A stretch of 46,395 nt of DNA from Spirochaetales bacterium. Its GTDB lineage: Bacteria; Spirochaetota; Spirochaetia; JABEVK01. The notes under the pieces are model-generated. The model was not told where the DNA came from. It did no database searches and saw only the letters and a list, made by a program, of their open reading frames with translations. The stretch lies in NCBI GenBank assembly GCA_027451385.1, contig DAIDJJ010000002.1, positions 1 to 46,395 on the forward strand. Reading direction: 5' to 3'. The position numbers and the translations under genes are program-made. This document shows positions 406-40,684 of the stretch, one piece after another (within the stretch, counting starts at the first letter, position 1; each line of letters begins with the position of its first letter).

Positions 406-2466
406 TCACCACCTTCCCGTTAAAAGAATATCAATAAGCTTGATCCCCAAAAAAGGTAACGTGAGACCACCCAAACCATAAATGAGCAGATTTTTCCGCA
501 GTAACTGAATTGCTGACTCGGCCTTGTACGCCACACCCTTTAACGCGAGTGGAATCAGGGCTGGGATGATGAGGGCGTTGAAAATCACCGCCGACAAAAT
601 CGCTGAGGAGGGTGAAGATAAATGCATGATATTGAGGGCCGCTAAGCCAGGATAGGTAACAAGAAACATAGCAGGAAGAATCGCAAAATACTTGGCAATA
701 TCATTGGCAATACTAAAGGTTGTTAAAGAACCTCGCGTCATCAACATCTGTTTTCCGACTAGAACGACCTCGGTCAACTTTGTCGGATTTGAATCCAGGT
801 CAACCATGTTTCCGGCTTCTTTTGCTGCTTGCGTGCCTGAATTCATCGCGACGGCAACGTCAGCTTGGGCTAAAGCCGGAGCATCATTCGTACCATCCCC
901 TGTCATAGCCACCATGTGGCCCTCAGCCTGATATTTTCGAATTAAAGCTAGCTTGTCTTCGGGTTTGGCTTCTGCCAAGAAATCATCGACTCCGGCTTCG
1001 GCGGCAATTGTTGCGGCTGTCATCGGGTTGTCACCGGTAATCATGACGGTCTTGATCCCCATTTGCCGTAATGTTGCGAAACGATTCTTTATGCCTTCCT
1101 TGACAATATCTTTGAGGACAACCAGTCCGAGGACTAACTCATCCTTGGTCACGACTAAAGGGGTAGCTCCAGTGCGGGACGCCGCTTCGGCTTGTTTTTT
1201 GACCGGGTCAGGGAAGTAACCTCCCTGAGATTCGATCCACTGCAACATTGCACTGACGGAACCCTTTCGGTACGAATTGCCGTTCCAATCGAGGCCGCTC
1301 ATACGAGTTTGTGCTGAGAAGGGAATCGAACAATGATCATTATCATTAAACGAAGGGGAAGTAATTTTAAATTTTTGCTTAGCCAAGATGAGGATAGAAC
1401 GGCCCTCAGGCGTTTCATCTGCCCACGATGATAGGTAGGCACTATTTGCGAGTTCCTCAGGATCCACGTGTGGGGCGGGAATCAATTCGCTAGCCATACG
1501 GTTACCAAGTGTTATCGTTCCTGTTTTATCCAAGAGAAGGATGTCGACATCCCCAGCAGCTTCGACGGCACGCCCCGATGTAGCCAAGACGTTTACACCC
1601 GAAAGACGATTCATTCCAGCTATTCCGATAGTGGAAAGAAGAGCGCCGATTGTGGTTGGTGCCAGGCATACAAAAAGGGCTACGAGAGAAGTAATACTGA
1701 CAACCTTACCTGTACCCGACTGTGAAACGGCAAATTGGCTGAACGGTAACAGTGTAGCTGTTACCACAAGGAAAATCAGTGTTAGTGCTACCAAAAGAAT
1801 TGTCAAAGCAATTTCATTAGGGGTTTTCTTTCTTGTGGCACCTTCAACGAGAGCAATCATACGGTCTAAAAAACCTTGGCCAGGTTCAGTGCTTACTTGA
1901 ATAATCAATCGATCTGACAGCACCTTAGTGCCACCAGTTACAGAACTACGGTCACCACCGGCTTCACGGATGACTGGTGCACTTTCACCAGTCACGGCAC
2001 TTTCATCCACACTGGCCGCTCCTAACAGTATTTCACCGTCAATCGGAATCAGAGCTCCAGATTCTACAAGAATAAGATCCCCTTTATGTAAACTGGAAGA
2101 CCCTATGTCTTCAACAGGACATTCCCAGTCCAGAGTTTTAAGTCGCCGAGCTAAAACTTCACTCCGAGTTTTGCGTAACTCAGCAGCCTGGGCTTTTCCG
2201 CGCCCCTCGGCCAAAGCTTCCGCAAAGTTAGAGAATATCACTGTAAACCACAGCCAAGCGGCAACAGTGAAAGTAAAGCCGCTTCCAACACCAGCATCCT
2301 TCACACCGAACCACGAACAAATTCCCAGAAACGTTGTTAAAATTGAACCGATCCATACCATGAACATCACTGGATTTTTCACTTGGAGTTGGGGTTTCAA
2401 CTTGACAACCGATTGGATCAACGCTTCTTTGAATAGCTTTTTTGTAAAAATCGCGTTGGTTTTCAT
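406..2466 (-). CDS. kdpB: K+-transporting P-type ATPase subunit B (KdpB)
   Basis: P-type ATPase motifs [13 protein letters not shown] and [21 protein letters not shown] moved the start to the internal ATG ([10 protein letters not shown]...) at 2466, which forms an ATGA overlap with the kdpA stop (2463-2465). The 81 extra codons in the track ORF lie inside kdpA. Confidence 0.95.
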
Positions 2467-4166
2467 ATTCTTGTCTCCTGAAAAAATTCCGCAATTGGAC
2501 CAAGAGCAAGACACGGTATAAAATTCAAGGCAGCAACAAGTAAAACAAAAAAGGTCAGGAGAATACCGAAGGTTATTCCGTACGTCGGCATAGTTCCCAA
2601 GCTCGAAGCTGAAACCTTTTTTTTCCCAAGATTTCCTGCCAATACAAGAATAGGTACGATTACCCCAAAGCGACCAATCAACATGGTGATCAAACCGGTA
2701 ATGTTCCAAAAGAATGTATTGCTGTTTAACCCAGCAAACGCACTGCCATTGTTGTTCGCCATGGATGAAAACGCATATAAAATTTCTGTAAAACCGTGCG
2801 GGACAGGGTTGTTCATGTCTGCGGGCACCCCTTTCACCATAGTGGCGAAAGCCGTACCACCAAGTATTAAAAAGGGTGTGATCGTCACGACAATAACGAT
2901 CAGGACCACAGAGAAACTATCGATTTTTTTGCCCAAGTATTCGGGGGTTCTGCCAACCATAAGCCCCCCAACAAAAACAGTTAAAAGAATCAAGGCTAAC
3001 ATGCCATACATGCCGCTACCCACACCACCGAATACGACTTCTCCAACTTGCATGGCCAACAAAGGCATCATGCCACCTAAAGGTGAAAAACTATCCAACG
3101 TGGCGTCTGTGGCTCCGCAAGACGTCGACGTCGTAGCAAGACTGAAAAGTACGGAAGGGCCAATCCCAAAACGAGTTTCTTTGCCTTCCCAATTTCCCGA
3201 ACTCCAATCAACACCCGTTACGGCATTCGATGGTGATGAAAATTCAGAAAAAAATGTTGGGATAAAAAAAGCTGTGAACAAGGCAAGCATGACGCCGTAG
3301 ATAGCCCAACTTTGCCTTTGATCGCGAACCATTCGCCCGAAAGTGAAAACAAACGCTACAGGTAGCAATAGCATCGAAAAAGTTTGTAAGAAATTGGTAA
3401 AGGCTGTGGGATTTTCAAACGGATGCGCCGAGTTAGCATTGAAAAACCCTCCCCCGTTTGTCCCCATTATTTTGATCCATTCTTGGCTTGCCACTGGCCC
3501 TAAAGGGAGGAACTCTTTGCTACCATTCCCTACTGAAAAGACTTTGTATGGCGCCAAGTTTTGAATCACACCTTGTGATACCAAAAAAACTGCTCCCAAA
3601 ATCGACAACGGGAGCAGTATGTACAAATTGATTCTGATTAGGTCACTCCAAAAATTGCCTAATTGGTGAGTTTCACGACGAGACAGGCCTCTGAACAATG
3701 CGGCCATGATGGCTATACCAACTGCGGCCGAAAGGAAATTCTGGACTGTCAAGACAGCCATTTGTGAAAAATAGCTCATGGTCGTTTCCCCTGCATAGTT
3801 CTGCCAGTTCGTGTTGGTAACAAAACTCACAGCAGTATTCAGGGCAAGGGTCCAGGGAACTCCGGGATATTGTTGCGGGTTGATAATGTTCTGAAAAGGA
3901 ATCCTATCCTGAAAAATCAAAAGAAAGAAAACAACGGCAATTTTGACAATCGAAAAGATTAACACGGCCCAGATCCATTGTTTTGAGTCCATCTCTTCGC
4001 CGGGATGGACCCCCGTACAACGGAATAAAAAACGTTCAATTGGCCCCAGTAACTTAGTCACTCCCTCTGGTCCTGCCTCGAGGACTCGGGCAACCCAGTG
4101 CCCCAGGGGCCAAGCAACAGCCGTCAGCACAATAAAAAAAACTAGATAATACAGGATTTCGTTCAT
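2463..4166 (-). CDS. kdpA: K+-transporting ATPase subunit A (KdpA)
   Basis: Polytopic membrane ORF of about 567 aa, directly upstream of and coupled to kdpB. Size, hydrophobicity and position are typical of KdpA. I prefer the ATG at 4166 ([11 protein letters not shown]...), preceded by GGGGAG, over the TTG at 4184. Confidence 0.9.
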
Positions 4167-4213
4167 TAGTCTCCCCAAAGCCAAGGCTTCTGAGAAAACT
4201 TATGTCAAAAGTT

Positions 4214-23811: not shown

Positions 23812-24515
23812 CAGTTTTTGTGACAGGAATCGACACCGATATCGGCAAAACCTGGGTCACCGGTCAGCTTTTGGGCGTCCTACGCCAGCAGGTGGCGGCC
23901 ATCTCGATGAAGTTGGTGCAAACGGGGCAAGAACCGCTCCCGGGGCTCGCGGGGGTGTCCCAAGACCTCCGGGAACACCGCCGTTTAGCAGGAATGCCGT
24001 TACTCCCTGAGGATCTTCAAGGACTAACTTGTCCGTGGATTTTTCGAGAACCAGCGTCACCCCACTGGGCGGCCCAAAAGGAAGGGAAAACCCTACAAGA
24101 AGCTGCACTCGCCTCTGCCGTCTCCAAACTTGAACACAGCTTTCCTTGGGTACTTTGTGAAGGTGCCGGCGGCGTCTTGGTTCCTTTGGCACCGGGGCTC
24201 ACCACCCTCGATTTTGTGGGACGGCGCGGGTGGCCGGTCATTCTGGTCACCACCCCTCGCCTCGGTAGTATCAACCATACCTGGCTGACAATTGAAGCCG
24301 TACTGAGCCGCGGGCTCACCCTGGCGGCCGTCGTCGTGAACCGCAGTGACGCTTGGGGCGAAAGTCTGAGGCTGAGCCTTTTAAGTACCTTGCAGGAGTT
24401 TGAAGCTCAAGGCAAAGTCCTTGAGCTTTTCGATGACCCTCAAAAAAATCCCAAGGGCTTTTCAAAATTAGCCCAAATCGTTCTGAGCCTTCGTGAAAAT
24501 CAGACCCAAAATTAA
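23808..24515 (+). CDS. bioD: Dethiobiotin synthetase
   Basis: P-loop VFVTGIDTDIGKTWVT and CEGAGGVLVP block. ATGA overlap with the bioC stop. Confidence 0.88.
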   Translation: MTVFVTGIDTDIGKTWVTGQLLGVLRQQVAAISMKLVQTGQEPLPGLAGVSQDLREHRRLAGMPLLPEDLQGLTCPWIFREPASPHWAAQKEGKTLQEAALASAVSKLEHSFPWVLCEGAGGVLVPLAPGLTTLDFVGRRGWPVILVTTPRLGSINHTWLTIEAVLSRGLTLAAVVVNRSDAWGESLRLSLLSTLQEFEAQGKVLELFDDPQKNPKGFSKLAQIVLSLRENQTQN

Positions 24516-24976
24516 GACCAAGCGGCCTTCAAACGCTTTGAAAACGCCTCTTTGAGGGCCTTCAGTTGAGTCTTTTCAGTAGCCGAGGGGATAGTAAGGT
24601 TCCCCTCCAGCTGACCTTGAACCAACGATAACCCGTTTGCGGTCATGACGCGGTAAACCAAGCTGACTAAGGTCAGGTCCTTGTCCCCAGCTTTCCAAAT
24701 TAAATGAAACCAAACGACCCGATCGGCTCCATAATTTTTTGCCAAGCCTTTCAAGCGGAGGGTATCACCTTGGGCATCCGTCGTTTCATCCTGCAGGTCA
24801 AAAGCCACCTGACCTTGATCAAAGAGCTGATCAAAAACGGTTTCTACCAAAGCACTCTCGACCTGAGGTTGGATATCGGTGGCCGGAAGCTCTTGGGAGT
24901 GACAAACCAGTACCGTTTCTGCCGAGACAGCACAGACGGACATGCCCCAGAATAGTAAAACTGCCAAAAATCGCAT
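24512..24976 (-). CDS. Secreted hypothetical protein
   Basis: GGAGGG sits 4 nt before ATG 24976. The signal peptide is MRFLAVLLFWGMSVCAVSA. No family recognised. Confidence 0.55.
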   Translation of the reverse strand: MRFLAVLLFWGMSVCAVSAETVLVCHSQELPATDIQPQVESALVETVFDQLFDQGQVAFDLQDETTDAQGDTLRLKGLAKNYGADRVVWFHLIWKAGDKDLTLVSLVYRVMTANGLSLVQGQLEGNLTIPSATEKTQLKALKEAFSKRLKAAWS

Positions 24977-25067
24977 AAATCCCTCCGCTTTCAGTTTCGG
25001 CACTAAGTCCAACTAAACTAAATTTTCCTTGATTGAAGAGCCTTTGGAATCATGGTAAACTGGGGGG

Positions 25068-25652
25068 GTGAACTTTTATGTAATCAGGGTCAAACCCCGT
25101 GGTGAAAAATCCTTTGCCCAACTTTGTCAAAAGCTGATTCCCGAGGAGCTGAAGGTTCACTTTCCTCGGCGGCGCTTAACAGAACGAAAACAAGGTGTGA
25201 CCAAAAAAGTCGAGTCTCCGCTTTTCCCCGGCTATGTTTTTCTGGAAATCCCTGAGACGATGACTCCAGAACTTTATCACCGGTTAAGGAAGGTTCCGGG
25301 ATACTTCCACATTTTGAAACCCAGCGGTGAGCTAAAAGAACTCAAAGGACACGATCTGGAACTTGTGAAACACTTCCTTCAGTTCGGTCAAGTGATGGAA
25401 GCCTCTAAGGTTGTTTTTGATGAAAACCAACGAATCCGAGTTCTCAGTGGACCGATGTCTGGTCTTGAAGGCAAGATTGTTTCCGTCGACCGGCGCAAGG
25501 GCCGTGCTAAGATCATCCTAGATTTTGACCGCAACCAGTTTACGATTAACCTCGCCTTTGAAGTGTTAGAGGCTGCCCCAACTGAACCAGGAGTTTCTCA
25601 ACCACCAGGACATTCTCAGCAAGAGGCTCCGCCCCAGGGAAATGCCTCATGA
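25068..25652 (+). CDS. Specialised NusG paralog (UpxY/RfaH/LoaP-like transcription antiterminator)
   Basis: NGN-like N-terminus (FYVIRVKPRGEKS...LFPGYVFLEI) and a KOW motif (IRVLSGPMSGLEGKIVSVDRRKGRAKI). It is the first gene of a polysaccharide-type operon. It has a GTG start. Confidence 0.75.
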   Translation: MNFYVIRVKPRGEKSFAQLCQKLIPEELKVHFPRRRLTERKQGVTKKVESPLFPGYVFLEIPETMTPELYHRLRKVPGYFHILKPSGELKELKGHDLELVKHFLQFGQVMEASKVVFDENQRIRVLSGPMSGLEGKIVSVDRRKGRAKIILDFDRNQFTINLAFEVLEAAPTEPGVSQPPGHSQQEAPPQGNAS

Positions 25653-27121
25653 GTTTGCGTCGGCTCGTCATCATCGGTGCCGGTTTTGCCGGAAGAGCTC
25701 TGGCCCGTGAAATCCGTGAGCGGTTTCCCGAGCGCAATCTGGAGGCCTTTTGGGACGACGACCCGGTAAAAATCGGGTCCATTCTCGAGGGTGTCCCTGT
25801 CTTAGGGCCTATCTCTGGTATGCGGGCCCGAGAGACCATACCCGACGAGGCCATTCTGGCCATTCCCAGTGCAACCAAGGGTCAGCTCAAACAAATCTAC
25901 AACATCGTGGTTCAAACAGGGATTCCCCACATCCGCATTTTGCCGGCGATTAGCCAAATCGTCGACGGAGAAGCTCATTTTGTTCTGACGCGCGATATTG
26001 ACCCTCAGGACCTCTTAGGCCGCAATCCGGTGCAGATATCTCTTCGTCAAAGCCTACGGTATCTGCGGGGCAAACGGGTCCTCATCACGGGTGCCGGAGG
26101 GAGTATCGGCAGTGAATTGGCCCGACAGCTTCTCTCAGGCGGGGCAGAACGGCTGTATCTTTTGGGACACGGCGAGAACGCCATCTACCAAATCGATAAA
26201 GAACTCCGCCTCCTTCAAGCCGGCGGAGTCGGAGAAAAAGCCACCATTGTTCCCATCGTGGCCGATTTAAAAGATGCCCAACACCTCCAGTTTCTTTTAT
26301 CCAGACTGAAGGCCGATGTGGTGTTTCATGCGGCGGCGCACAAGCACGTTCCCATGATGGAAGCTAACCCGGTCGAAGCTTGCGCGAACAATGTCTTGGG
26401 AACCAAGAATTTATTGGATGCCTGTCTGGAGCATCACGTTAAGAAATTTGTCCTCATTTCTACCGATAAAGCCGTGTTACCTCATTCCGTGTACGGCGTC
26501 ACCAAGAAGATTAGCGAAGATCTCGTTCGAGAGGCCGGGAATCGGGGCCAAGGGCAATATATGACCGTTCGCTTTGGGAATGTTCTTGGTTCCCGAGGAA
26601 GTATAGTCCCCCTCTTTCGAGAACAAATTCTCTCTGGCGGTCCTGTCACCATCACTGACCCCCAAGCCTCAAGATACTTTATGACGATTCCCGAGGCGGT
26701 TAGCTTAGTCCTCCAAACCGGAGGTATGGGTCAAGCGGGACAGCTGTACCTCTTAGACATGGGGGACCCCATCCTCATCGAGGACCTTGCCTCCCAAATC
26801 ATCCGCTTTTACGGCAAAGAGCCCGGCAAAGATATTGCCATTCAATACATTGGGTTACGTCCCGGAGAACGTATAGAAGAACGGCTTTTTGCTCCCGAAG
26901 AAGAACCAGTTCCCACGTCGTACGCCCGCATTAATCGCTTAGTGCGGGCCCCCGGTTCTGATTTATCCGAACACAGGCTCGAAGACCTGTTGGTCAAACT
27001 CAAGTCGATTTGTGTCTATTCCCCGGAAGCCTCAACCCTTTACCGCAACCGTCGGGCCTTGCGAGAGACCCTTCGTGAGTTTTACCCCACGTTGGAGGCC
27101 AAGAATGAACCCGAATTCTAA
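25649..27121 (+). CDS. CapD/PglF/WbpM-type nucleotide-sugar 4,6-dehydratase (soluble form, no N-terminal TM domain)
   Basis: Two Rossmann motifs (IIGAGFAGRAL and ITGAGGSIGSEL) and the catalytic blocks LISTDKAV and YGVTKK. Confidence 0.85.
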   Translation: MSLRRLVIIGAGFAGRALAREIRERFPERNLEAFWDDDPVKIGSILEGVPVLGPISGMRARETIPDEAILAIPSATKGQLKQIYNIVVQTGIPHIRILPAISQIVDGEAHFVLTRDIDPQDLLGRNPVQISLRQSLRYLRGKRVLITGAGGSIGSELARQLLSGGAERLYLLGHGENAIYQIDKELRLLQAGGVGEKATIVPIVADLKDAQHLQFLLSRLKADVVFHAAAHKHVPMMEANPVEACANNVLGTKNLLDACLEHHVKKFVLISTDKAVLPHSVYGVTKKISEDLVREAGNRGQGQYMTVRFGNVLGSRGSIVPLFREQILSGGPVTITDPQASRYFMTIPEAVSLVLQTGGMGQAGQLYLLDMGDPILIEDLASQIIRFYGKEPGKDIAIQYIGLRPGERIEERLFAPEEEPVPTSYARINRLVRAPGSDLSEHRLEDLLVKLKSICVYSPEASTLYRNRRALRETLREFYPTLEAKNEPEF

Positions 27122-28301
27122 GGTCACGAGCGTTCCTTTCTCGCGTCCGGTTTTGGGTTCCGAAGAAGAAGAAGCTGTTTTGGCGGTTCTCAGGTCGGGA
27201 TGGCTCACGACGGGAGCCCAGGCTCAGGCCTTTGAACAGGAGTTTGCCGCCTACGCGGGGACAAAGTTCGCCCTTGCCGTCAACAGTGCCACGGCCGGGT
27301 TGCACCTCTCGTTAGAAGCCCTCGGTGTCGGGCCCGGAGATCTTTGCGCCGTTCCGGATTACACCTTTACCGCGACAGCCGAGGTCGTTCGTTATCTGGG
27401 AGCCGACCCTGTTTTTTTAGACTGCCTGCCGCAGAGTCCCCAATTTGACCCCCAACGCCTTGAAGATGTTTTAAAAAAACAAAAAATCAAAGCCGTGTTG
27501 CCTGTCCATTTGACGGGTGAACCGTTTGATAGCGAGGCCTTAGCGTTTCTTCAAAACCGCTATGGCTTCTTTGTGGTAGAAGATGCGGCTCACATGATTC
27601 CTTCCCGGCGTCCCGACCACAAACTTTGGGGAGCCGGAAGCGATCTTGGTGTTTTTTCGTTTTATGCCAATAAAAATATGACGACAGGTGAAGGTGGCAT
27701 GATTGTCACCGATCAGGAAGCTTGGGTGCAACGTATCCGTCGCATGCGCCTACATGGGATTGACCGCGACGCCTTTGACCGGTACACCTCGCCCAAGGGA
27801 TCGTGGGCCTATCAAATCATTGCCCCCGGGTTTAAGTACAACATGACAGATATCGCCGCCGCAATTGGCCGAGTCCAGCTCACCAAAGCGGAAGGGTTTT
27901 GGAAGGCTCGCCAACGCTTGGTCCGCCGTTACCTCGAAGTCCTTGAACCTTGTCACCTGATCAAGTTGCCAGTTTGGCGGGATGATCATTCCTGGCATGT
28001 TTTTAGTCCCTTATTAGTTCCCTCGGTTGCAAGATGGCGAGATCGTTTTGTCCAAGAGTTAACTCAACGCGGGGTTGGCGTTTCGGTGCATTATACGCCC
28101 TTGCATCGTATGCCGTATTGGCGCGATACCTACGACCTTCGCCCCGAAGCTTTTCCGAACTCCGCTTTGCGAGGAGAGAGCACCTTTTCCCTCCCCCTTT
28201 ATGCTTCGATGACTGACTCCCAGCAAGATTTTGTTCTGGAAGCGGTTCTTGAGGTTCATCAGCTACTTAGTCAGGAGGCGGACTGTGGCCTCGCGACGTA
28301 A
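27105..28301 (+). CDS. DegT/DnrJ/EryC1/StrS-family sugar aminotransferase
   Basis: FSRPVLGSEEEEAVLAVLRSGWLTTG N-terminus, VEDAAH, and the PLP-lysine block FSFYANKNMTTGEGGMIV. GGAGG precedes ATG 27105. Confidence 0.88.
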   Translation: MNPNSKVTSVPFSRPVLGSEEEEAVLAVLRSGWLTTGAQAQAFEQEFAAYAGTKFALAVNSATAGLHLSLEALGVGPGDLCAVPDYTFTATAEVVRYLGADPVFLDCLPQSPQFDPQRLEDVLKKQKIKAVLPVHLTGEPFDSEALAFLQNRYGFFVVEDAAHMIPSRRPDHKLWGAGSDLGVFSFYANKNMTTGEGGMIVTDQEAWVQRIRRMRLHGIDRDAFDRYTSPKGSWAYQIIAPGFKYNMTDIAAAIGRVQLTKAEGFWKARQRLVRRYLEVLEPCHLIKLPVWRDDHSWHVFSPLLVPSVARWRDRFVQELTQRGVGVSVHYTPLHRMPYWRDTYDLRPEAFPNSALRGESTFSLPLYASMTDSQQDFVLEAVLEVHQLLSQEADCGLAT

Positions 28302-30411
28302 GAATGCTGTAGATCAGGTGCAGGACCCCCTCTTTCATCCCGATCCTCGGCTGTTTGAAGCACCTTCGGAACTGTTATTCGGGTTGACCTTACGTTCTCC
28401 GGTGGCGCACGGAAAGCTTTTGGCCATGATTTATCCGCCCTTGCCGGAGGGGTTTACCCTCTTACGGGCCGAAGACCTTCCTGGTAGTGATGTGTTGCAT
28501 GTGCTAAAAAGCCGGCTTCCCTTATTGAATGGCGAAATGGTCCGCTATATCGGCGAGCCGATAGCCTTGGTAGCCGGCCCCCAGGAAGCGCAAGTCAGAG
28601 CTTGGGCCAAAAAAGTACGATTTACTTTTCAAAAACTTCCGTTGGAGCAGTTCAGCCAAGGCGTGCGTCTTAAATCCAGGTCATTGGCGGGGGGACACTA
28701 CATTCCTGACGATCAACCTGTCAAACTGATTGAAGGCGTTTACTCCACTGGGGCCCAAGATGCAGGAGTTTTTGATGCCTGTGAAGCTTTAGCCGTGGTT
28801 CAAAACGAAGAGGCCTGGTTAAGCGTAAAAAGCCAATGGCCAGGCAACGTCGTTCATAGTGTGGCACGGGCTTTAGGTCTTGAAGCCAGCAAAGTTCGCG
28901 TCAAAGCTCAACCCTCGTCCGCGCACCTCAACAGTCAAGTGTGGTTTCCGACTATCCTTGCGGTACACGCGGCCCTTTTATCACAAGCCAGTGGCCACCC
29001 TGTTCGGATGACGCTGAGTAAGGACGAAGAGTTTTTTTATTCGCCCAAACGGCCGGAATCGCGTATCCTTATACGCTCAACGGTAGACATACAAGGACGT
29101 ATCTTGGATTTCTCTGCTGAGGCCGTCCTCAACATGGGGGCCTACGGTGTGCTCGAAGAAGAACTTCTTGACCGGTGTATTTTAGGACTTTTAACCCCTT
29201 ACCGGTTTGGGGCGTTTCAGGTCAATGCGCACGCGGAACTCAGCCACACCCCTCCTCGAGGCCCTGTGGGAGGCATGGGGGAAAATCTGGGCATTTTTGC
29301 CCTCGAAAGTCACATCCAAGACCTTTGTGAAGCCCTGGAACTTGACCCTATGGTGTGGAGGCAGGCCAATGCCCTCTCGCGAGATCAAATTGCCTTTACA
29401 GGAGAACCGTGGAAAGCCGATGCACCTTTGACGTCGCTGATCTCGGAATTGGGTAAAGCCGCAGACTTTCCTCGTAAATATGCTAGCTTTCTTCAGTTAA
29501 ATTCCCGCACGAAAGAATGGCGGGACGAAGCTCTGCCTTTGCGGGGCATAGGCTTAGCGGCAGGCTTTCAAGGCAATGGTTTTTTAGCGGGCGGAACCTC
29601 GACGGTCAATTTAGAAATTCGTCTCGAAGCTGACTCTAGCCTTAGTGTCTATTCGCCGTTAGTGACGGCCAATGATCACTTGCTGGCTCTTTGGAAACAC
29701 GCGCTGGGCGACCCCCTCGGGATAGCTCCCGAGCTCGTTCGCTTTTGCCCTGTGATAACGGGCGAACACCCCACGGGAGGTCCTTCCTTAGCGTCTCGGG
29801 CCTTCGAGATCATGCCCAAACTTCTTGCCAAAGCAGGCCACACCTTAGCTCAACGTCGTGTCCACCAGCCGCTTCCCCTAAATCTACATACCTTATTTCG
29901 GCGCAAAGCTAACCCTGCCTGGGATCCTGAAAACTTTACAGGCCAACCGTTCTTATCGTTGTCGTGGGTAGGAGCTGTCGCCGAAGTCGAGGTTCTGCCC
30001 TTGCTTTCAGAAATCCGGATCAAAAAAATTACTCTTATGGCGGATGCAGGTCCCCTTCTGGACGAGACAGCCGCCCGAGATGCCCTCACCGAAGGCATCC
30101 TGTCTGCCGTAGGTTGGGTTTTTTCAGAAAATATCTTTTGGGAAAAACTCAGCATCCCCCGTTCGATTTTTCAGAAATACCGCTTACCTAGCGTTCGTGA
30201 AGTTCCCCGGTTAGAAATACTTTTCTATCAAAACCCCAAAGGAAGTCCCCCCCGAGGTTTGGGTTCCTTAGGGAGCAGTGCCGTCGCTCCAGCCCTCTTG
30301 TCGGCTATCCGTCAAGCGTTAGCTCCTAGCTGGCGTCATTTGCCCGTAACGCGTAAAATGTTAGATGAAGCTTTGAGGAAACATGAAGCAGAACTTGATC
30401 CTGAACGGTGA
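28285..30411 (+). CDS. Xanthine dehydrogenase / CO dehydrogenase-family large subunit homolog with divergent cofactor motifs
   Basis: Hammerhead-domain pattern (LRSPVAHGKLL...VRYIGEPIALVAGP), PPRGPVGGMGENLGIFALESHIQDL and C-terminal ...APALLSAIRQAL blocks. GTG 28285 sits 6 nt after AGGAGG (28273-28278). The ATG at 28231 is the alternative start. Confidence 0.7.
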   Translation: MASRRKNAVDQVQDPLFHPDPRLFEAPSELLFGLTLRSPVAHGKLLAMIYPPLPEGFTLLRAEDLPGSDVLHVLKSRLPLLNGEMVRYIGEPIALVAGPQEAQVRAWAKKVRFTFQKLPLEQFSQGVRLKSRSLAGGHYIPDDQPVKLIEGVYSTGAQDAGVFDACEALAVVQNEEAWLSVKSQWPGNVVHSVARALGLEASKVRVKAQPSSAHLNSQVWFPTILAVHAALLSQASGHPVRMTLSKDEEFFYSPKRPESRILIRSTVDIQGRILDFSAEAVLNMGAYGVLEEELLDRCILGLLTPYRFGAFQVNAHAELSHTPPRGPVGGMGENLGIFALESHIQDLCEALELDPMVWRQANALSRDQIAFTGEPWKADAPLTSLISELGKAADFPRKYASFLQLNSRTKEWRDEALPLRGIGLAAGFQGNGFLAGGTSTVNLEIRLEADSSLSVYSPLVTANDHLLALWKHALGDPLGIAPELVRFCPVITGEHPTGGPSLASRAFEIMPKLLAKAGHTLAQRRVHQPLPLNLHTLFRRKANPAWDPENFTGQPFLSLSWVGAVAEVEVLPLLSEIRIKKITLMADAGPLLDETAARDALTEGILSAVGWVFSENIFWEKLSIPRSIFQKYRLPSVREVPRLEILFYQNPKGSPPRGLGSLGSSAVAPALLSAIRQALAPSWRHLPVTRKMLDEALRKHEAELDPER

Positions 30412-30865
30412 AGATGTCACCCTAAATGGGGAAGAAGAAGATTCTCTGTTTGCCGTTCTCAAAGCAGAAACCCCGCTTTTTTCGGGCATCATCTGCTGTC
30501 AGAAAGGCTTTTGCGGTCGTTGTCACGTTTTGCTGGATGGACGTGAAGTCCCTTCATGCCTTGTCCCCTTTTACCAGGCCCGTCAGCGTGAAGTCGTCAC
30601 GCCTGAGGGCTTTGCCGCCACAGAAGACCACCGGCTTTTTCGTCAACTTTTGGCTGAAGAAGGCTTGGTGTACTGCCGGCAATGCACCGAAGCCCAAATC
30701 TTTCACTTAAGTGCCTTTCTGGAACAATTTCCTGCACCCGAGGATGAGGAGTTGCGTACGGCTATATCCGAGATTCCCTGCCGGTGTGGCAGTCGCCCCG
30801 TGTTGGAGCGCGCCGTACGCCGCTTGGTAGGTTTAAAGGAGTCCGACCGTGCCGGACGAAGATAA
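30383..30865 (+). CDS. [2Fe-2S]-binding small subunit of the XDH/CODH-like complex
   Basis: All eight Cys are present: CQKGFCGRC...SC (C-x4-C-x2-C...C) and CRQC-x31-CRC. Confidence 0.75.
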   Translation: MKQNLILNGEDVTLNGEEEDSLFAVLKAETPLFSGIICCQKGFCGRCHVLLDGREVPSCLVPFYQARQREVVTPEGFAATEDHRLFRQLLAEEGLVYCRQCTEAQIFHLSAFLEQFPAPEDEELRTAISEIPCRCGSRPVLERAVRRLVGLKESDRAGRR

Positions 30866-31709
30866 CCTCCCGCCCTTAATCCATACCCCCAAAACGCTAC
30901 AAGAAGCTTTAACTCTTCTGAATGCTTATCCTAAAGCTCAACTGTGGGCTGGGGGAACTGCAAACCCCGAGCAAGACTTTAGTTCGCCCCTTCGCTTGCC
31001 TACCACGTTGGTGTCCTTGCATCTCGTCGAGGAGTTGAAACGAGTCCAATACGGGGACCGTTTTGTAGATTTAGGGTCGGGGATGACCTTGAATCAAGTG
31101 CTTCATGTGTTAAAAGCATTTCTTAACCCCGCCTTTCGGCAAGCGATTTTAGCCACGGGCTACACGGCTTTACGAAACCTGGCAACTCTAGGGGGCAACC
31201 TTTGTCAAAAAGGATTTTATGGGGATCTTTTTCCTGTGCTTCACCTGATCGGTGCCCAATTTGAGTTTCGGGGACTTCGGTCTTCCCGTTGGCTCACGTC
31301 AAATCAGGTGTCTGACGAAGGTCGACTTAGGCCGCTCGCCGGTGAAATCTTGACGCGTGTCCGTGTTCCGCAAGAAGAGTGGCCCCACTTCTTTTATCAA
31401 AAGATCGGAAATTTTCGCACACCATGGGATGAGCGACTCTCGATGACGGCGTTGGCTCGCACCAAGCATGGCCTCGTCGAAGCTTTGCGTCTGATTTATT
31501 ACTTACCTCACACCGGACTATTGCGCCACCGAGGGCTTGAGGCCGAATTGGTGGGGCAACGGGTTCCTTTTGCCCCCAGGCTTCGGCAGGCGGCGTTGAG
31601 TAGCATCAAGGAAGCCATGGAGGGCTTATCTTTGCCCCCGAGTTTGTTTCAAAAAGACCGTGTTCTTCATATGACCCGCTGGGTTTTGTCGCAAATCCAA
31701 GATGATTAA
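30849..31709 (+). CDS. FAD-binding medium subunit of the XDH/CODH-like complex
   Basis: FAD_binding_5 pattern: TPKTLQEALTLL...LWAGGTA and RNLATLGGNLC. AAGGAG sits 7 nt before GTG 30849. Confidence 0.7.
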   Translation: MPDEDNLPPLIHTPKTLQEALTLLNAYPKAQLWAGGTANPEQDFSSPLRLPTTLVSLHLVEELKRVQYGDRFVDLGSGMTLNQVLHVLKAFLNPAFRQAILATGYTALRNLATLGGNLCQKGFYGDLFPVLHLIGAQFEFRGLRSSRWLTSNQVSDEGRLRPLAGEILTRVRVPQEEWPHFFYQKIGNFRTPWDERLSMTALARTKHGLVEALRLIYYLPHTGLLRHRGLEAELVGQRVPFAPRLRQAALSSIKEAMEGLSLPPSLFQKDRVLHMTRWVLSQIQDD

Positions 31710-31717
31710 CCCTCAAC

Positions 31718-32665
31718 TCAGGATCTGCGAGTTCGGTCCTGTCCCATTCGGTCCTGTCCCAGGCGGTTCCGCGCTTCTGTAATAGCCTGCTTCCAAAGCC
31801 GAGAGACCAGAACATTCAGCTTTTCCTGCCGTAGCACCAAAAAGGATAAGGACCGGTGATAGATTCGAAGTGCGGCCAAAACATCTGGTTTAAGGGAATT
31901 TCTAGATGGCCCAAACCCAAAGTTTTCAATGGGACGTAAAAACTTCCAATGACCAGCATTATGCACGATGGGAATCACTTGGCCAGTTTCTTCTTCGAGA
32001 AAAACCCCATTTTCGAGCCTAAAGGCTCGTTCTGAGGACGCTAAGACAAAATTGTACTCAGATGGTAAGGGGTCATACCCTTGTTCATGCGCGTACAAAT
32101 TGACCACAACTTGGTCGGGGCCAAATTTGGCTTTATTCAGAATAAGCTTGTCCATCCAAGCCGCAAGGTCGTGAAAAACCTCGGGGGGACCAGCCAACAC
32201 CCCGGCATTCAGAAGAGGTTTTAGTGCCGTACTTTCGCGTATTCGGCGAAGTGAGGCCCTTGAAAAAAACTCATCCGATAAGAAAAACTCCGACCCGGAT
32301 TTCGCGTCTTCTGCGGCAACCCTCAGTTTGTTCCCTGACTTGAGAAGTTCAGAGAACTCTGACTGAAAAATGATATCACCAGAATCACAAAGAACCACGA
32401 CCTGAGCTTTTTGCTGGTGTAAATCAGCCGACAAATCGCGAAAACGGGCCTGTGTGACATGGATATCTTTTCGGCAAGGAAGCACACTTAGTCCTTTATG
32501 TTCTAAGTAATACCGTTGAGCCAAGGACAGTCCATAATCTAAGACACGTATTTTTAAACCTTCAGGAAGGTGAGCCCACAATGACGGCAACCAATGTTCA
32601 ATAAGAAAATCCCCATACTTGCGGTCTGAAGCTGTGTAAAGCAGACTTTGAATAGGTTCTGGCAC
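31718..32665 (-). CDS. GT8-like (GT-A fold) nucleotide-sugar transferase
   Basis: VVLCDSGDIIF (DxD-like), NAGVLAG and FGPDQVVVN blocks. I prefer GTG 32665, which has GGAG 6 nt upstream and lies just after the NUDIX stop. The track start at 32713 would overlap the NUDIX gene by 46 nt. Confidence 0.6.
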   Translation of the reverse strand: MPEPIQSLLYTASDRKYGDFLIEHWLPSLWAHLPEGLKIRVLDYGLSLAQRYYLEHKGLSVLPCRKDIHVTQARFRDLSADLHQQKAQVVVLCDSGDIIFQSEFSELLKSGNKLRVAAEDAKSGSEFFLSDEFFSRASLRRIRESTALKPLLNAGVLAGPPEVFHDLAAWMDKLILNKAKFGPDQVVVNLYAHEQGYDPLPSEYNFVLASSERAFRLENGVFLEEETGQVIPIVHNAGHWKFLRPIENFGFGPSRNSLKPDVLAALRIYHRSLSFLVLRQEKLNVLVSRLWKQAITEARNRLGQDRMGQDRTRRS

Positions 32666-32667
32666 GA

Positions 32668-33246
32668 TCAGCTCCAAACTTCTTGGGGATAACCATATTT
32701 CTGACGTTCCCACCAGAGTAAGGCTAAACTCATAATTCCATGGCTTTCACTCTCGCTTAAACGTCGTCTGACATCTTGAATGGGTAAAAGTCCGACACTG
32801 AGGTACTCGTGTTGATCAAGTTCGAGTGTAGTTTTCACGCGCTGAGCACCCCGAGCAAGAAATGTCCACACTCGGTTGGTCAGAAAGGCTGGGTTAGAAT
32901 TACAAGAGCCTAAAAGTCGCCACTCGTGGGCCTCAAAGCCAGTTTCTTCGCGAAGTTCACGCTGAGCCGCCTGTTCTGGGGTTTCACCATCGTCGACCAT
33001 ACCACCGGGAAATTCCCAGTAAAGCTGTCCATCTCCATGGCGAAACTGGCGCACCATCAAAAAGCAAGCCTGCTTTTGGTCGTCGACCTCGGCAATGACA
33101 TTGACCCAATCGGGGGCTTTGGCCACGACAAAGGAGGCTTGGTGGCCTTCTGGTGAAATACTTACCCGTTGAACTAAATCAAAAATGGGGGTTTTGAGGA
33201 GGGTTTCTTCTCTTTCGACCCGAAAACGAAGGCTGTCATCCTGCAT
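32668..33246 (-). CDS. NUDIX hydrolase (ADP-ribose/nucleotide-sugar pyrophosphatase-like)
   Basis: NUDIX box GGMVDDGETPEQAAQRELREETGF. The ATG at 33246 lies just downstream of the upstream gene's stop (33254-33256). Confidence 0.85.
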   Translation of the reverse strand: MQDDSLRFRVEREETLLKTPIFDLVQRVSISPEGHQASFVVAKAPDWVNVIAEVDDQKQACFLMVRQFRHGDGQLYWEFPGGMVDDGETPEQAAQRELREETGFEAHEWRLLGSCNSNPAFLTNRVWTFLARGAQRVKTTLELDQHEYLSVGLLPIQDVRRRLSESESHGIMSLALLWWERQKYGYPQEVWS

Positions 33247-39226: not shown

Positions 39227-40684
39227 ATGAGTCGTCTTTGTCTCGTTCTTACTGGTAAGACCCTTCACGAAAATCGACAGCTGATTTCTCAGTATAGAAA
39301 ATGGATCGATTTAGTCGAACTGCGAGCCGACTTGATTGATCGTAATGAATGGTCAGAGCTGAACTCCTTTTCTTTAGAATTAGATTTGGACATCATACTG
39401 ACTTTGCGTAAAGCCATTGACGGTGGTCAGTGGACCGGAGACGAGCAAGAACGTGAAAGTTTTTTTCGTATGGCGCTTAACGGCCGCTGGGCGTTTTGGG
39501 ATATTGAAGACAATGCCAGGCTACCACTTCTCGAAAGAGAATGGCTTAAAAAAGGTGGCCGGCTCATTGTTTCCTTTCATGATTTTCAAGGCGTTCCGAG
39601 TGATTTAGCGGAACGTTTAAGTCGCGCTCAAGGTCCGGCAACTATTGTGAAGGCTGCTGTTGCGGTTCATGGCTCGGCAGATTTTACTCGATTTTTGCAT
39701 TTGGCTGACCTTCTTTCACCAGGTGACCATGTTATTCTTGCCATGGGACCTTATGGCACCGCCAGCCGTGTCTTAGCTGAAAAGCTTGGTAATCTATGGA
39801 CCTATACTTCTGTGTCTGGACTTTCCCCTTCACTGGGACACTATGACCCCGTAACACTATCAACACTCTACCGCTTTAATCGGTTGACCCCACAAACCAA
39901 ACTGTTGGGGATCATCGGAAACCCTGTGCATCATTCTAAGTCCCCAGCCATTCACAACGCTGGTATGGAAGCCGCAGCCTTTGATGGGGTCTATGTTCCT
40001 TTTCTGACGGATGACCTCGACGCCTTTTTCGAAATCGCCCAAAAACTCGGGATTCAAGGCTTTTCGGTAACGATTCCTTTCAAAGAAAAAATCCTGGCGT
40101 TTTTGGACCACCTTACTCCGGCCGTTCAAGCCATAGGGGCCTGCAATACCGTATGGAAAGAGTCCGACGGTTGGCATGGCGATAACACAGATGCTCAAGG
40201 ATTTCTAGCCCCTCTTGAAGAGCTCTGGGGACCGAACCTTGCCGGAAAACGAGTCACCGTTATCGGCACAGGGGGAGCGGCTCGAAGCATTATTTGGGCT
40301 CTAAAAACTGCTGGGGCAGAAATTTTAGTTCTAGGAAGAAACATCGCCAAGGCAGAAGTACTTGCCACGGAACTTGGCGCGTCATGGGGCCCCCTCGCCG
40401 CAGAAAGTCTCCCCCTGATCAGTACTCATGATGATTTAATTGTTCAAACAACGAATGTCGGTATGGGGGAATTAGAAGGACAGAATCCCTTAGATTGGTA
40501 TGAATTTCATGGTGCTGAAGTCGCGTATGACATCATTTATGTTCCCGAACGAACAGCGTTTCTTCAGGCTGCGGAGGCTTCGGGCTGTCGAATACTGCTA
40601 GGCAAAGACATGCTTCTGCACCAAGCTATAGCCCAGTTTTACCGCTTTACAGGAATTCGTTACCCAGAAGCGCTCCCCTTTTAA
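39227..40684 (+). CDS. aroDE: Bifunctional type I 3-dehydroquinate dehydratase / shikimate 5-dehydrogenase
   Basis: The N-terminal half of about 225 aa is DHQase-I-like (VELRADL..., AMGPYGTASRVL). The C-terminal half has SDH blocks GNPVHHSKSPAIHNAGM and VIGTGGAARS. Confidence 0.85.
   Translation: MSRLCLVLTGKTLHENRQLISQYRKWIDLVELRADLIDRNEWSELNSFSLELDLDIILTLRKAIDGGQWTGDEQERESFFRMALNGRWAFWDIEDNARLPLLEREWLKKGGRLIVSFHDFQGVPSDLAERLSRAQGPATIVKAAVAVHGSADFTRFLHLADLLSPGDHVILAMGPYGTASRVLAEKLGNLWTYTSVSGLSPSLGHYDPVTLSTLYRFNRLTPQTKLLGIIGNPVHHSKSPAIHNAGMEAAAFDGVYVPFLTDDLDAFFEIAQKLGIQGFSVTIPFKEKILAFLDHLTPAVQAIGACNTVWKESDGWHGDNTDAQGFLAPLEELWGPNLAGKRVTVIGTGGAARSIIWALKTAGAEILVLGRNIAKAEVLATELGASWGPLAAESLPLISTHDDLIVQTTNVGMGELEGQNPLDWYEFHGAEVAYDIIYVPERTAFLQAAEASGCRILLGKDMLLHQAIAQFYRFTGIRYPEALPF

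Follow-up and report, generated by a model that had tools for sequence, protein, structure and literature searches.

A Spirochaetota operon joining predicted amino-sugar genes to an XDH-fold complex without canonical Moco-contact motifs

The window, the whole 46,395-nt stretch of DNA analysed here, comes from an uncultured Spirochaetales bacterium and carries six plus-strand genes at 25068-31709. These run in the order LoaP-type NusG paralog, dehydratase (CapD), aminotransferase (DegT) and the subunits L, S and M of a complex related to xanthine dehydrogenase (XDH):

24512..24976, minus strand: small secreted protein, divergent from the operon, likely start ATG 24976
25053..25061, plus strand: extended -10-like element TGGTAAACT, ending 6 nt upstream of GTG 25068
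25068..25652, plus strand: LoaP-type NusG paralog with NGN and KOW domains, first gene of the operon
25649..25652, plus strand: overlap of NusG paralog and dehydratase, ATGA, 4 nt
25649..27121, plus strand: predicted soluble PglF/CapD-type UDP-HexNAc 4,6-dehydratase, from Pfam and structure-profile matches
27105..27121, plus strand: overlap of dehydratase and aminotransferase, 17 nt
27105..28301, plus strand (open reading frame 27012/27105-28301): predicted DegT/DnrJ/EryC1-family PLP-dependent sugar 4-aminotransferase (PF01041, 347.7 bits), start ATG 27105 with GGAGG upstream
28285..28301, plus strand: overlap of aminotransferase and L, 17 nt
28285..30411, plus strand (open reading frame 28231/28285-30411): XDH-fold large subunit L, 708 residues, without canonical motifs for contact with molybdenum cofactor (Moco), start GTG 28285 with AGGAGG upstream
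30383..30411, plus strand: overlap of L and S, 29 nt
30383..30865, plus strand: small subunit S, eight cysteines as ligands for two [2Fe-2S] clusters, start ATG 30383 with GAGGAAAC upstream
30849..30865, plus strand: overlap of S and M, 17 nt
30849..31709, plus strand: medium subunit M, predicted FAD-binding (PF00941 FAD_binding_5, 96.9 bits), start GTG 30849 with AAGGAG upstream

The first-pass annotation described every junction as overlapping, and the open reading frame calls confirm this for all five (4, 17, 17, 29 and 17 nt); the starts it chose have Shine-Dalgarno-like sequences upstream and agree with the N-termini of the HMM matches. Independent relatives repeat this pattern of overlapping junctions, at 4/17/1/29/17 nt in locus L003, 17/17/17/11/17 nt in L007 and 14/17/8/4/20 nt in L008, and those within aminotransferase-L-S-M overlap in 8/8 gene-called arrangements. 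The overlaps in the window are therefore more than chance, and the six genes, judged by them, form one conserved, translationally coupled unit as had been proposed. The operon ends where that annotation placed it, 8 nt from a convergent gene (M stop at 31709, convergent open reading frame end at 31718). This neighbour encodes a divergent GT8-like glycosyltransferase and accompanies the cassette in its closest relatives only.

L001, L003, L005, L010, L012 and L015 share the arrangement TG-n-TAAA[AC]T, six nucleotides and GTG, while L009 has TAGACT at the position of the -10-like box. The six nucleotides themselves vary, and in L001 and L003 they include no Shine-Dalgarno sequence; a strict consensus promoter scan did not call the element. 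Lying 6 nt short of the GTG, the box puts the predicted start of transcription at the G of GTG 25068, and the mRNA would be leaderless. The protein encoded from this GTG has the Pfam domains NusG and KOW and scores 144.9 bits on the NCBIfam model NF033641 antiterm_LoaP (cutoff 125); orthologues from six further clades reach 124-145 bits on it, such that seven clades lie above or at the cutoff. It is a putative operon-specific elongation/antitermination factor. LoaP has been reported in Spirochaetota adjoining biosynthetic or polysaccharide operons (PMC12691694), and its presence there is also known from PMC7858274. A terminator scan of 24400-32800 on both strands found no convincing intrinsic terminator inside the operon, returning 6 weak matches (four of them on the plus strand within the operon) against 11.5 expected from shuffles.

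HMM annotation upholds all six gene assignments made from the sequence alone. The dehydratase matches Pfam Polysacc_synt_2 with 347 bits over residues 144-430, its best solved-structure match is PglF/WlaL (245 bits) and its translation contains STDKAV and YGVTK motifs; an N-terminal Rossmann-like domain is present and a transmembrane region is not. The aminotransferase scores 319 bits on PseC and 316 bits on ArnB, both under the equivalog cutoffs, with ArnB as its best solved-structure match (265 bits). The catalytic lysine K190, in SFYA[NT]K, is found in 15/15 cassette aminotransferases that cover the site, the sixteenth (L006) being cut off before it, and alignment of the cassette loci revealed no conserved cysteine cluster. 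As the first reading stated, no acetyltransferase, glycosyltransferase or flippase is present in the operon.

Both redox subunits retain their cofactor sites. The S cysteines form the motifs C39-x4-C44-x2-C47-x11-C59 and C97-x2-C100-x31-C132-x-C134, which are conserved in all cassette loci, with CC instead of CxC in L092. The M motifs AGGT and TLGGN are kept in most aligned loci (the window clade and nearer relatives), only a T-x-GGN motif being found in the Treponema loci L091 and L092; Pfam did not detect a CO_deh_flav_C domain at the M C-terminus.

It is in L that the complex departs from its family. The AlphaFold2 model (pLDDT 86.4) has a Foldseek TM-score of 0.84, query-normalised, to R. 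capsulatus XdhB (1jro_B), whereas MoCoBD_1 and MoCoBD_2 score only 111 and 60 bits, against 245-265 and 170-228 in canonical relatives. In place of GGGFGGK, FRGFG, E-x-GQG and GQxEGG it has SSAHLNSQVWFP, PVGGMG, TAND and ARDALTEG, respectively, substitutions also obtained when L is aligned by profile with solved XDH structures; at the catalytic GxGE the window has GLGS. Among 247 aligned sequences the distribution is bimodal: 224, the cassette-linked family, keep none or one of five canonical Moco-contact motifs, 3 keep two, and 20 keep three or more. The last group comprises 14 chosen outgroup sequences and six others, of which three were looked at, two being confirmed as canonical by Pfam and one being fused to a MocA-like domain. 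Loss is nonetheless graded: some family members still have the GxGE catalytic glutamate and a QDHYYPEP segment. All six genes are under strong purifying selection (dN 0.06-0.12, and 0.076-0.082 for L, with dS saturated), and family-specific invariant L residues cluster at the former active site. We infer that L-S-M lacks Moco; motif loss is not proof of this, since the pterin could be held another way. The earlier placing of the trio in the molybdenum-hydroxylase family thus stands for the fold, but as a functional description 'molybdenum-hydroxylase complex' is probably wrong, because L lacks the motifs that define such enzymes. With flavin and iron-sulfur sites kept and Moco signatures lost, its chemistry is probably one not yet described.

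The gene order NusG-(CapD)-DegT-L-S-M is found in every recovered spirochaete locus whose L is at least about 27% identical, including cultured Treponema ruminis, where a GGDEF protein gene takes the place of NusG. The flanking genes are bio in the window, suf in L001-L005 and, in Treponema-like loci, SPOR/MFS or queA/ruv. The first-pass annotation had named a trio lying elsewhere in relatives as grounds for giving up the coupling; aminotransferase-L-S-M instead occurs in all spirochaete loci examined, at L identities as low as 27%, and throughout Spirochaetota the neighbourhood persists while its flanks change. Near L homologues of 26% identity or less (Clostridium, Thermotogae, Bipolaricaulota and others) no CapD, DegT or NusG was found. 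The operon is Spirochaetota-specific and self-contained. Its divergent neighbour has a signal peptide (MRFLAVLL...) and a mature part beginning AETVLVCH..., with homologues of 35-81% identity (tblastn) at the same position in L001, L003, L005, L009, L010, L012 and L015; L008 and L090 have open reading frames in the corresponding place that can be aligned to it, and L091 and L092 have similar-sized genes there. It matches no Pfam family, and its single-sequence AlphaFold2 model (pLDDT 48) is unusable. A gene for a protein with SPOR, a peptidoglycan-binding domain, often adjoins the cassette.

What might such a combination of genes do? The best reading, still tentative, makes L-S-M a redox module of flavin and iron-sulfur centres, free of Moco, that works on or alongside the UDP-amino-sugar from the preceding genes, as a redox tailoring step or an electron-transfer module for envelope biogenesis of the kind that the first reading proposed. 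The window-clade operon would be transcribed as a leaderless mRNA, the LoaP-type protein probably keeping RNA polymerase processive over its own operon, and be translated by coupling through the overlapping junctions. The PglF-like dehydratase most likely converts UDP-GlcNAc or a similar NDP-hexose to a 4-keto-6-deoxy intermediate, from which the lysine-bearing aminotransferase most likely makes a UDP-4-amino-4,6-dideoxy-hexose. L-S-M descends from XDH-family enzymes. It has kept the electron wire of FAD in M and two [2Fe-2S] clusters in S, and it no longer has the L residues and the S sequence context by which the pterin/Mo head of the cofactor is gripped. Its remodelled L pocket would bind the amino-sugar in nucleotide-linked form, or else the aminotransferase that carries this sugar, and electrons would travel between the bound substrate and NAD(P)H or ferredoxin by way of FAD and the iron-sulfur clusters. 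Enzymes encoded elsewhere probably use the product in the cell envelope, a destination suggested by the small secreted protein, a constant neighbour, and the SPOR protein, a frequent one, because the conserved cassette itself holds no glycosyltransferase or exporter. Against this reading, an E1-type electron acceptor would call for a His-for-Lys change and an iron-sulfur site, both of which the aminotransferase lacks, and we know of no sugar-nucleotide reaction that uses an XDH-type iron-sulfur chain directly.

An unlikely alternative is that L-S-M is a genuine Mo (or W) hydroxylase, which holds its cofactor through diverged contacts and acts, by oxidation or reduction, on an amine, aldehyde or heterocycle connected with the amino-sugar pathway. 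As this would have it, the XDH fold is complete and the iron-sulfur/FAD chain intact; a phosphate-loop-like GPSxxSR is kept (SGPTVASR in the closest canonical relatives), the deeper spirochaete clade retains GxGE and Q-D/E-H-Y-Y-x-E, and the PDB matches of L include 6-hydroxypseudooxynicotine dehydrogenase, an amine-cleaving XDH-family member. However, 224/224 family members have other sequence in place of four glycine-rich or polar segments that contact Moco, with the bulky, invariant W185, W220 and W470 at or beside them, the S glutamine/TPGM context next to the pterin is gone, and every cassette locus examined lacks an XdhC- or MocA-type maturation gene.

Retained redox centres beside a lost catalytic glutamate and lost Moco motifs would also suit an inert or sensory scaffold, a pseudoenzyme that, by binding the dehydratase or aminotransferase, adjusts amino-sugar output to the redox state of the cell while leaving the sugar itself untransformed. 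The interchangeable first-position regulators, LoaP in most loci and GGDEF in T. ruminis, suggest that the cassette sits in regulated envelope physiology. We regard this as quite improbable: purifying selection over all 708 L residues and the invariant active-site cluster fit a working pocket better, and three subunits with three cofactors make an expensive sensor.

Very improbable is that the dehydratase and aminotransferase feed no glycan and, in the role of the Moco-maturation genes of canonical XDH operons, build a nucleotide-linked amino-sugar prosthetic group for the old dinucleotide-cofactor pocket of L. The cassette is self-contained, without transferase or exporter, and the constant aminotransferase-L overlap suggests that the two proteins are made in stoichiometric amounts. 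The fusion of at least one near-canonical relative, P0248, to a MocA-like cytidylyltransferase suggests that the ancestral enzyme worked with molybdopterin cytosine dinucleotide (MCD); MCD carries an NDP handle with the topology of an NDP-sugar, and L kept the phosphate-loop-like motif while losing the pterin contacts. Yet the idea is entirely speculative: we know of no such amino-sugar cofactor, L090 lacks the dehydratase, and an amino-deoxy-sugar has no obvious redox function. Least probable of all is mere co-transcription of two functionally unrelated halves, an amino-sugar module and an independent oxidoreductase. In its favour, direct evidence of a chemical link is absent, CapD is lost in L090 and an EamA gene lies between CapD and DegT in L001; against it, DegT-L-S-M stays contiguous and overlapping at 27-89% L identity in at least 8 genomic contexts and a motif-less L was never seen without an adjoining DegT wherever the contig allowed inspection.

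How the proposed redox module relates to known systems can be considered from each of its parts. Like UpxY and many LoaPs, the regulator gene heads its own presumed target operon, and its product passes the LoaP HMM cutoff. In B. velezensis LoaP needs a 5' leader hairpin and a terminator, whereas the window-clade -10-like box leaves no room for either. The short, 6.6-kb operon offers no evident intrinsic terminators to overcome, which counts against antitermination. The front end resembles the PglF/PglE (bacillosamine), PseB/PseC and ArnB systems, its dehydratase being closest to PglF and its aminotransferase nearest to ArnB and PseC; it differs in that the dehydratase has no membrane anchor, every equivalog cutoff is missed and no acetyltransferase, glycosyltransferase or flippase follows.

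With canonical XDH/CODH enzymes (PucCDE/XdhABC, 4-hydroxybenzoyl-CoA reductase, CoxLSM) the trio shares the three-subunit architecture, an XDH-fold L, both [2Fe-2S] cysteine motifs in S and FAD_binding_5 in M. The L-S-M order, which the first reading called uncommon, is not confined to the cassette, since the nearest canonical relatives (Clostridium, P0040) have it too. The cassette nevertheless lacks GGGFGGK, FRGFG, E-x-GQG and GQxEGG in L, the catalytic glutamate in the window clade and, in S, the QCG[FY]CTPG setting, or in full the pterin-contacting context [AV]QCG[FYI]C[TI]PGM / GN[LI]CRC; it falls far under all equivalog HMM cutoffs, has no XdhC/MocA maturation genes nearby, and accompanies sugar-nucleotide genes where canonical trios go with purine, aldehyde or aromatic catabolism.

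No published description of a dehydratase-aminotransferase-L-S-M cassette was found in the literature. The first-pass annotation knew of no described pathway that couples such a sugar pair to such a complex, but there is a precedent in E1/E3 (AscC/AscD; RfbH/RfbI), the C-3 deoxygenation system of 3,6-dideoxyhexose biosynthesis. It unites a DegT-family enzyme with a nucleotide-sugar 4,6-dehydratase and an electron-transfer protein bearing flavin and [2Fe-2S], and is to our knowledge the sole described logic of this kind. The cassette is not a member: in E1 a histidine replaces the PLP lysine and the protein has its own [2Fe-2S] cluster, so that the cassette aminotransferase, with its lysine and no conserved cysteine cluster, is rejected as an E1, and E3 is an FNR-type single polypeptide in contrast to the XDH-type L-S-M complex. 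For L itself the nearest precedent is the 'Orphan molybdoproteins' of Peng et al. 2018, who found homologues of the XO family where the organism has no Moco pathway, raised Mo-independent forms as a possibility and reported no sequence-level feature that would set such forms apart (PMC6147048); the cassette L clade differs in its clear, bimodal loss of Moco-contact motifs.

A three-part reading of the cassette is the best supported by its sequence: an amino-sugar front end, a redox step by an L-S-M trio that would be free of the molybdenum cofactor (Moco), and coupled expression associated with a LoaP-type factor. The six plus-strand genes that the first-pass annotation had claimed (NusG paralog, dehydratase or CapD, aminotransferase or DegT, L, S and M) are all present in the ORF calls as it described them, and Pfam and NCBIfam HMMs uphold its six annotations. 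The overlaps are likewise borne out, with ATGA at 25649 followed by 17, 17, 29 and 17 nt, and the chosen starts, which agree with the HMM N-termini, have Shine-Dalgarno-like sequence upstream (ATG 27105 with GGAGG, GTG 28285 with AGGAGG, ATG 30383 and GTG 30849). The M gene runs to 31709, and the convergent ORF comes to its end at 31718. Gene calls in homologous loci fetched from other genomes give junction overlaps of 4/17/1/29/17 nt (L003), 17/17/17/11/17 nt (L007) and 14/17/8/4/20 nt (L008), and each of the eight arrangements examined has overlapping aminotransferase-L, L-S and S-M junctions. Since the gene calls of these independent relatives have the same habit, the overlaps are not accidental to the window sequence.

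Fundamental to this reading is the L subunit, in which the fold of the xanthine dehydrogenase (XDH) family is kept and the Moco signature is lost. Genes 4-6 are XDH-family L, S and M genes whose equivalog scores all fall far below the cutoffs (pucD, for instance, at 153 versus 784 bits). L matches Pfam MoCoBD_1 (111 bits) and MoCoBD_2 (60 bits), its family profile scores 246 bits against XdhB in the PDB, and its AlphaFold2 model (pLDDT 86.4, pTM 0.89) has a TM-score of 0.84 to Rhodobacter capsulatus XdhB (1jro_B), with confidence dipping at the replaced loops (pLDDT 61 for residues 211-220). Three alignments, namely window L to solved XDH structures, a profile of 24 family members to the same structures, and a MAFFT alignment with 14 canonical homologues, are concordant on the replacement of the motifs. 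All four Moco-contact motifs (GG[GAT]FG.K, [FY]R[GA].G, E.GQG and GQ..GG) are replaced in window L, as is the catalytic one.

Canonical L motifs and the sequences found in their place
GGGFGGK(E): SSAHLNSQVWFP in the window; G-x-HLDGK-LWYP in the deeper clade
FRGFGGPQ: PVGGMGEN in the cassette family
E-[MIV]-GQG: TAND / PGS.. in the cassette family
GQ-x-EGG: AR-x-AL-x-x-G in the cassette family
Catalytic G-x-GE: GLG[STNDH] in the window clade

As a group, the canonical outgroup retains all five motifs. At the position of the catalytic glutamate window L reads GLGS, and S, T, N, D or H occurs there within its clade; the glutamate survives in no more than a part of the deeper spirochaete clades. 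Residues that are invariant and specific to the family (W185, W220, W470, D394, R397 and K398) lie at or near the replaced loops. How widely the loss extends can be judged from a census. For it, 1.84 billion representative proteins were searched in full with an HMM, and the best 150 matches, all at 462 bits or more, were added to the alignment together with a Treponema-centred set. The outcome is bimodal: among 247 aligned L sequences, 224 have 0-1 of the five motifs, three have two, and 20 have at least three. These 20 comprise the 14 chosen outgroup sequences, which all score 3-5 of 5, and six others, two of which (the L homologues P0235 and P0248) are canonical Moco-type proteins by Pfam. 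Of the 150 best matches, no fewer than about 135 clusters at 50% identity belong to the motif-less clade. The leading rival, in which L-S-M is a diverged but genuine molybdenum enzyme, has to be weighed with both the XDH fold and the glutamate kept in some deeper clades on the one side and the replaced contact motifs on the other. The ORFs annotated in the 46-kb window include no gene for Moco biosynthesis or molybdate transport.

The electron-transfer subunits tell of conservation. S keeps, in every clade, the eight cysteines of two [2Fe-2S] motifs (C-x4-C-x2-C-x11-C and C-x2-C-x31-C-x-C), and it has lost the canonical [AV]QCG[FYI]C[TI]PGM / GN[LI]CRC context, which lies against the pterin in known XDH structures. 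M matches FAD_binding_5 (PF00941, 96.9 bits) and retains its TxGGN motif. When compared with the loci L009 and L010, all six genes have dN of 0.06-0.12 with dS saturated, which indicates strong purifying selection. Because the machinery outside the Moco contacts is intact and selection is strong, the six genes are functional and not in decay. A redox-sensing pseudoenzyme is the second rival: the lost catalytic glutamate of L could accommodate it, and strong selection over all of L, with family-specific invariant residues at the former active site, speaks for a working pocket.

The two sugar genes carry the other half of the reading. The dehydratase (gene 2) has a Polysacc_synt_2 short-chain dehydrogenase/reductase domain (Pfam, 347 bits), it comes closest among solved structures to the Campylobacter UDP-GlcNAc 4,6-dehydratase PglF/WlaL (245 bits), and the catalytic STDK and YxxxK motifs are present in the translation as LISTDKAV and YGVTK. 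Its product is 490 aa long, residues 1-140 forming a GxGxxG Rossmann-like domain, and the orthologue in L001 has a weak CoA_binding_3 match; whereas the long PglF/WbpM/CapD forms have an N-terminal transmembrane domain, the gene 2 product has no membrane anchor. Gene 3 belongs to the DegT/DnrJ/EryC1 aminotransferases (PF01041, 347.7 bits), with PseC and ArnB as its closest HMMs and ArnB as its closest solved structure. Acting in turn, the dehydratase and aminotransferase would yield an intermediate of the UDP-4-amino-4,6-dideoxy-hexose type, and L-S-M, as a putative Moco-free descendant of an XDH-family enzyme, could draw on its retained FAD and [2Fe-2S] chain to carry out a redox step that acts on this amino-sugar or on the enzyme carrying it.

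Where might such an intermediate bind? A nucleotide-sugar pocket in L is plausible because the phosphate-loop-like GPSxxSR is kept while the pterin and molybdenum contacts are lost. P0248 (928 aa) is among the canonical XDH-family L proteins that score closest to the motif-less family, and carries an N-terminal fusion to a MobA/MocA-like nucleotidyltransferase domain (a MocA-like cytidylyltransferase). This fusion in a near relative suggests that the ancestral lineage used the dinucleotide form of the cofactor, molybdopterin cytosine dinucleotide, with its nucleotide-diphosphate handle. A search of the long L homologues for Rosetta-stone fusions found, apart from this canonical protein with its MocA-like domain, only L proteins with insertions. 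The amino-sugar might itself be a new prosthetic group, a third rival that would make use of the same retained phosphate loop as the substrate reading. The boldest form of the proposal is that L-S-M is the first Moco-free XDH-family enzyme, that a UDP-amino-sugar occupies the old dinucleotide pocket as substrate or prosthetic group, and that FAD and two [2Fe-2S] clusters drive one-electron chemistry on the nucleotide sugar; we hold this to be unlikely as a whole, and if it is true, both the enzyme class and the route to a modified envelope sugar would be new.

Could the two halves simply be unrelated? One genome per GTDB species was scanned for the closest loci with two peptides typical of the window clade, so that the resulting count of cassette-bearing species is a lower bound; the closest are L009 and L010, from uncultured Spirochaetales MAGs, with 88-89% L identity. 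By tblastn of the window proteins over all fetched loci, the NusG-CapD-DegT-L-S-M cassette is found, complete or as far as the contig reaches, at every spirochaete locus with L identity of at least 30%. Near L homologues of 26% identity or less, from Clostridium, Thermotogae, Bipolaricaulota, Actinomycetota and other groups, the fetched loci contain S and M and never CapD, DegT or NusG. The flanks differ between clades: biotin genes border the cassette in the window, a suf operon does so in L001-L005, and Treponema-like loci have SPOR/MFS genes or queA-ruvAB there, so the cassette itself is the conserved unit. Its front varies: L090 has no dehydratase, L001 has an EamA gene between dehydratase and aminotransferase, and the cultured Treponema ruminis has a GGDEF protein at the usual place of the NusG paralog. 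The aminotransferase-L-S-M block is invariant across the loci examined, and the outcome that the first-pass annotation named as refuting its reading, with the trio elsewhere among catabolic genes in relatives, is not what these loci show. An operon of convenience, with unrelated halves on one transcript, sits poorly with a block that never varies. The preferred three-part reading draws on this invariable union, which points to an undescribed redox step in the nucleotide-sugar or envelope chemistry of spirochaetes.

As a side observation, the GGDEF diguanylate cyclase gene of T. ruminis (L091 5892-7280, GCA_014201975.1) stands at operon position one in place of the LoaP gene, a regulator thus exchanged for a different one, and shares 17 nt with the dehydratase gene that follows. 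At the other end of the cassette an extra gene overlaps the end of M in some loci, encoding a DUF4403 protein in L003 (L003/L004 13430-14854), where a convergent GNAT acetyltransferase gene follows, and a TP_methylase-family protein in L090 (11354-12076).

Every clade has, upstream of the cassette and divergent from it, a gene for a small signal-peptide protein. In four Treponema-like loci, all of them distant, this small secreted ORF is paired with the gene of a SPOR-domain protein of 445-858 aa directly upstream of the cassette.

SPOR-domain gene and small secreted ORF upstream of the cassette
L008 3453-6528
L090 3707-5973
L091 4011-5878
L092 4305-6674, where the SPOR match falls short of the Pfam cutoff

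SPOR domains bind septal peptidoglycan, and these neighbours mildly favour an envelope or cell-wall role. In the window clade the small secreted ORF alone remains, with no SPOR-domain partner, and its single-sequence AlphaFold2 model is unusable (pLDDT 48). At the neighbouring place L001 and L003 have a 449-aa protein with weak HD-domain matches. The cassette flanks in the window are housekeeping genes.

Other features of the contig
406-4184, minus strand, other contig region
9662-14042, plus strand, other contig region
15045-17702, plus strand, other contig region
18656-24515, biotin cluster: bioB on the minus strand; bioA, bioF, a BioG-type pimeloyl-ACP methyl esterase, a BioC-like methyltransferase and bioD on the plus strand
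31718-32713, minus strand, convergent ORF of 331 aa, more likely about 315 aa, 8 nt downstream of the cassette
Downstream on the opposite strand: the 331-aa ORF, a NUDIX hydrolase, an unknown gene and an MltD-like lytic transglycosylase
39227-40684, plus strand, other contig region

The biotin genes overlap, with bioB facing bioA-F-G-C-D, and the cluster end abuts the small secreted ORF upstream of the cassette. The four other contig regions listed include kdpB/kdpA, an Nqr/Rnf-type operon with an NqrB-like subunit, an FMN_bind subunit and an NqrF-like FAD/[2Fe-2S] subunit, a glycogen-debranching-type amylase and a fused aroD-aroE. The convergent 331-aa ORF itself has no Pfam or PDB match; by its homologues alone it is a divergent GT8-like glycosyltransferase, several of them, including proteins of Spirochaeta cellobiosiphila and Gracilinema caldarium, having PF01501 (Glyco_transf_8) and the name glycosyltransferase. 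It adjoins the cassette only in L009 and L010, the closest relatives.

The expression of the cassette has its own peculiarities. Gene 1 encodes NGN and KOW domains (Pfam) and scores 144.9 bits on the LoaP antiterminator model NF033641 (NCBIfam, cutoff 125); with orthologues from six other clades at 124.3-145.2 bits against the same cutoff, the NusG paralog scores as LoaP in seven clades, which fits reports of LoaP in Spirochaetota adjoining biosynthetic or polysaccharide operons (PMC12691694; PMC7858274). In eight loci exactly 6 nt separate the GTG start of the NusG paralog from the end of a conserved extended -10-like box, TG-n-TAAA[AC]T, these loci being the window (25029-25070 region) and seven relatives of 50-89% protein identity (L001, L003, L005, L009, L010, L012 and L015), and the bases of the 6-nt spacer vary between loci. 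Because of this position, transcription is predicted to start on the G of the GTG and the operon mRNA to be leaderless and GTG-initiated; the distant clades L007, L008 and L090 have GC-rich leaders of 30-70 nt instead of this geometry. Internal termination after the aminotransferase gene found little to commend it, there being only weak terminator-like matches, fewer than in shuffled sequence. A riboswitch or other known RNA element, such as the Moco riboswitch, was also set aside, Rfam giving no match at gathering thresholds over the whole window. The LoaP-type factor, together with leaderless and coupled translation, may serve stoichiometric expression.

Annotation routinely labels proteins of the XDH/CODH family molybdoenzymes, and surveys of molybdenum use count them so; the motif-less L corrects one such automatic label, 'xanthine dehydrogenase family protein molybdopterin-binding subunit'. 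Here a clade across Spirochaetota, a phylum with free-living Treponema as well as those of rumen and gut, has lost the cofactor-contact residues and kept the electron wire under strong purifying selection, and the cultured carrier T. ruminis makes experiments possible. Comparative genomics had raised Mo-independent forms of 'orphan' XO-family molybdoproteins and found no sequence feature for them (PMC6147048); the motif-less clade offers a concrete, testable candidate. No published account of the cassette or of Mo-independent XDH-family enzymes was found in the literature searched, the coverage of which is incomplete.

How does the cassette stand beside known systems? All of its parts come from known families; what is new is the motif-less L clade itself and the way it is obligatorily joined to a sugar aminotransferase. 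For LoaP the comparison is with Bacillus velezensis, where the target needs a 5' leader hairpin (UNCG) and a NusA-dependent terminator, whereas the window operon would have no room for either. Since the -10-like box ends 6 nt before the GTG, no leader would be available in the eight loci, and the cassette offers a LoaP-type regulator apparently working without one. For the union of sugar and redox chemistry the classical precedent is the E1/E3 system of 3,6-dideoxyhexose synthesis, a sugar-nucleotide pathway with a flavin/[2Fe-2S] reductase. Its E1-type member of the DegT family (AscC/RfbH/ColD/SpnQ), a PMP-dependent 3-dehydrase, has a histidine in place of the PLP lysine, and E1 and SpnQ have their own [2Fe-2S] cysteine motif. 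In the cassette the PLP-binding lysine (SFYA[NT]K) is found in 15 of the 15 aminotransferases that cover the site, a sixteenth, from L006, being truncated before it; cysteine columns are conserved in 9 of 14 sequences at most, so that there is no conserved cysteine cluster; and gene 3 reaches only 131 bits on the RfbH HMM versus a cutoff of 423. The retained catalytic lysine and the lack of a conserved cysteine cluster rule out an E1/E3-like C-3 deoxygenation, and by its sequence the gene 3 product is a true aminotransferase: where E1 combines a histidine with an Fe-S cluster, the cassette enzyme keeps the lysine and has no cysteine cluster.
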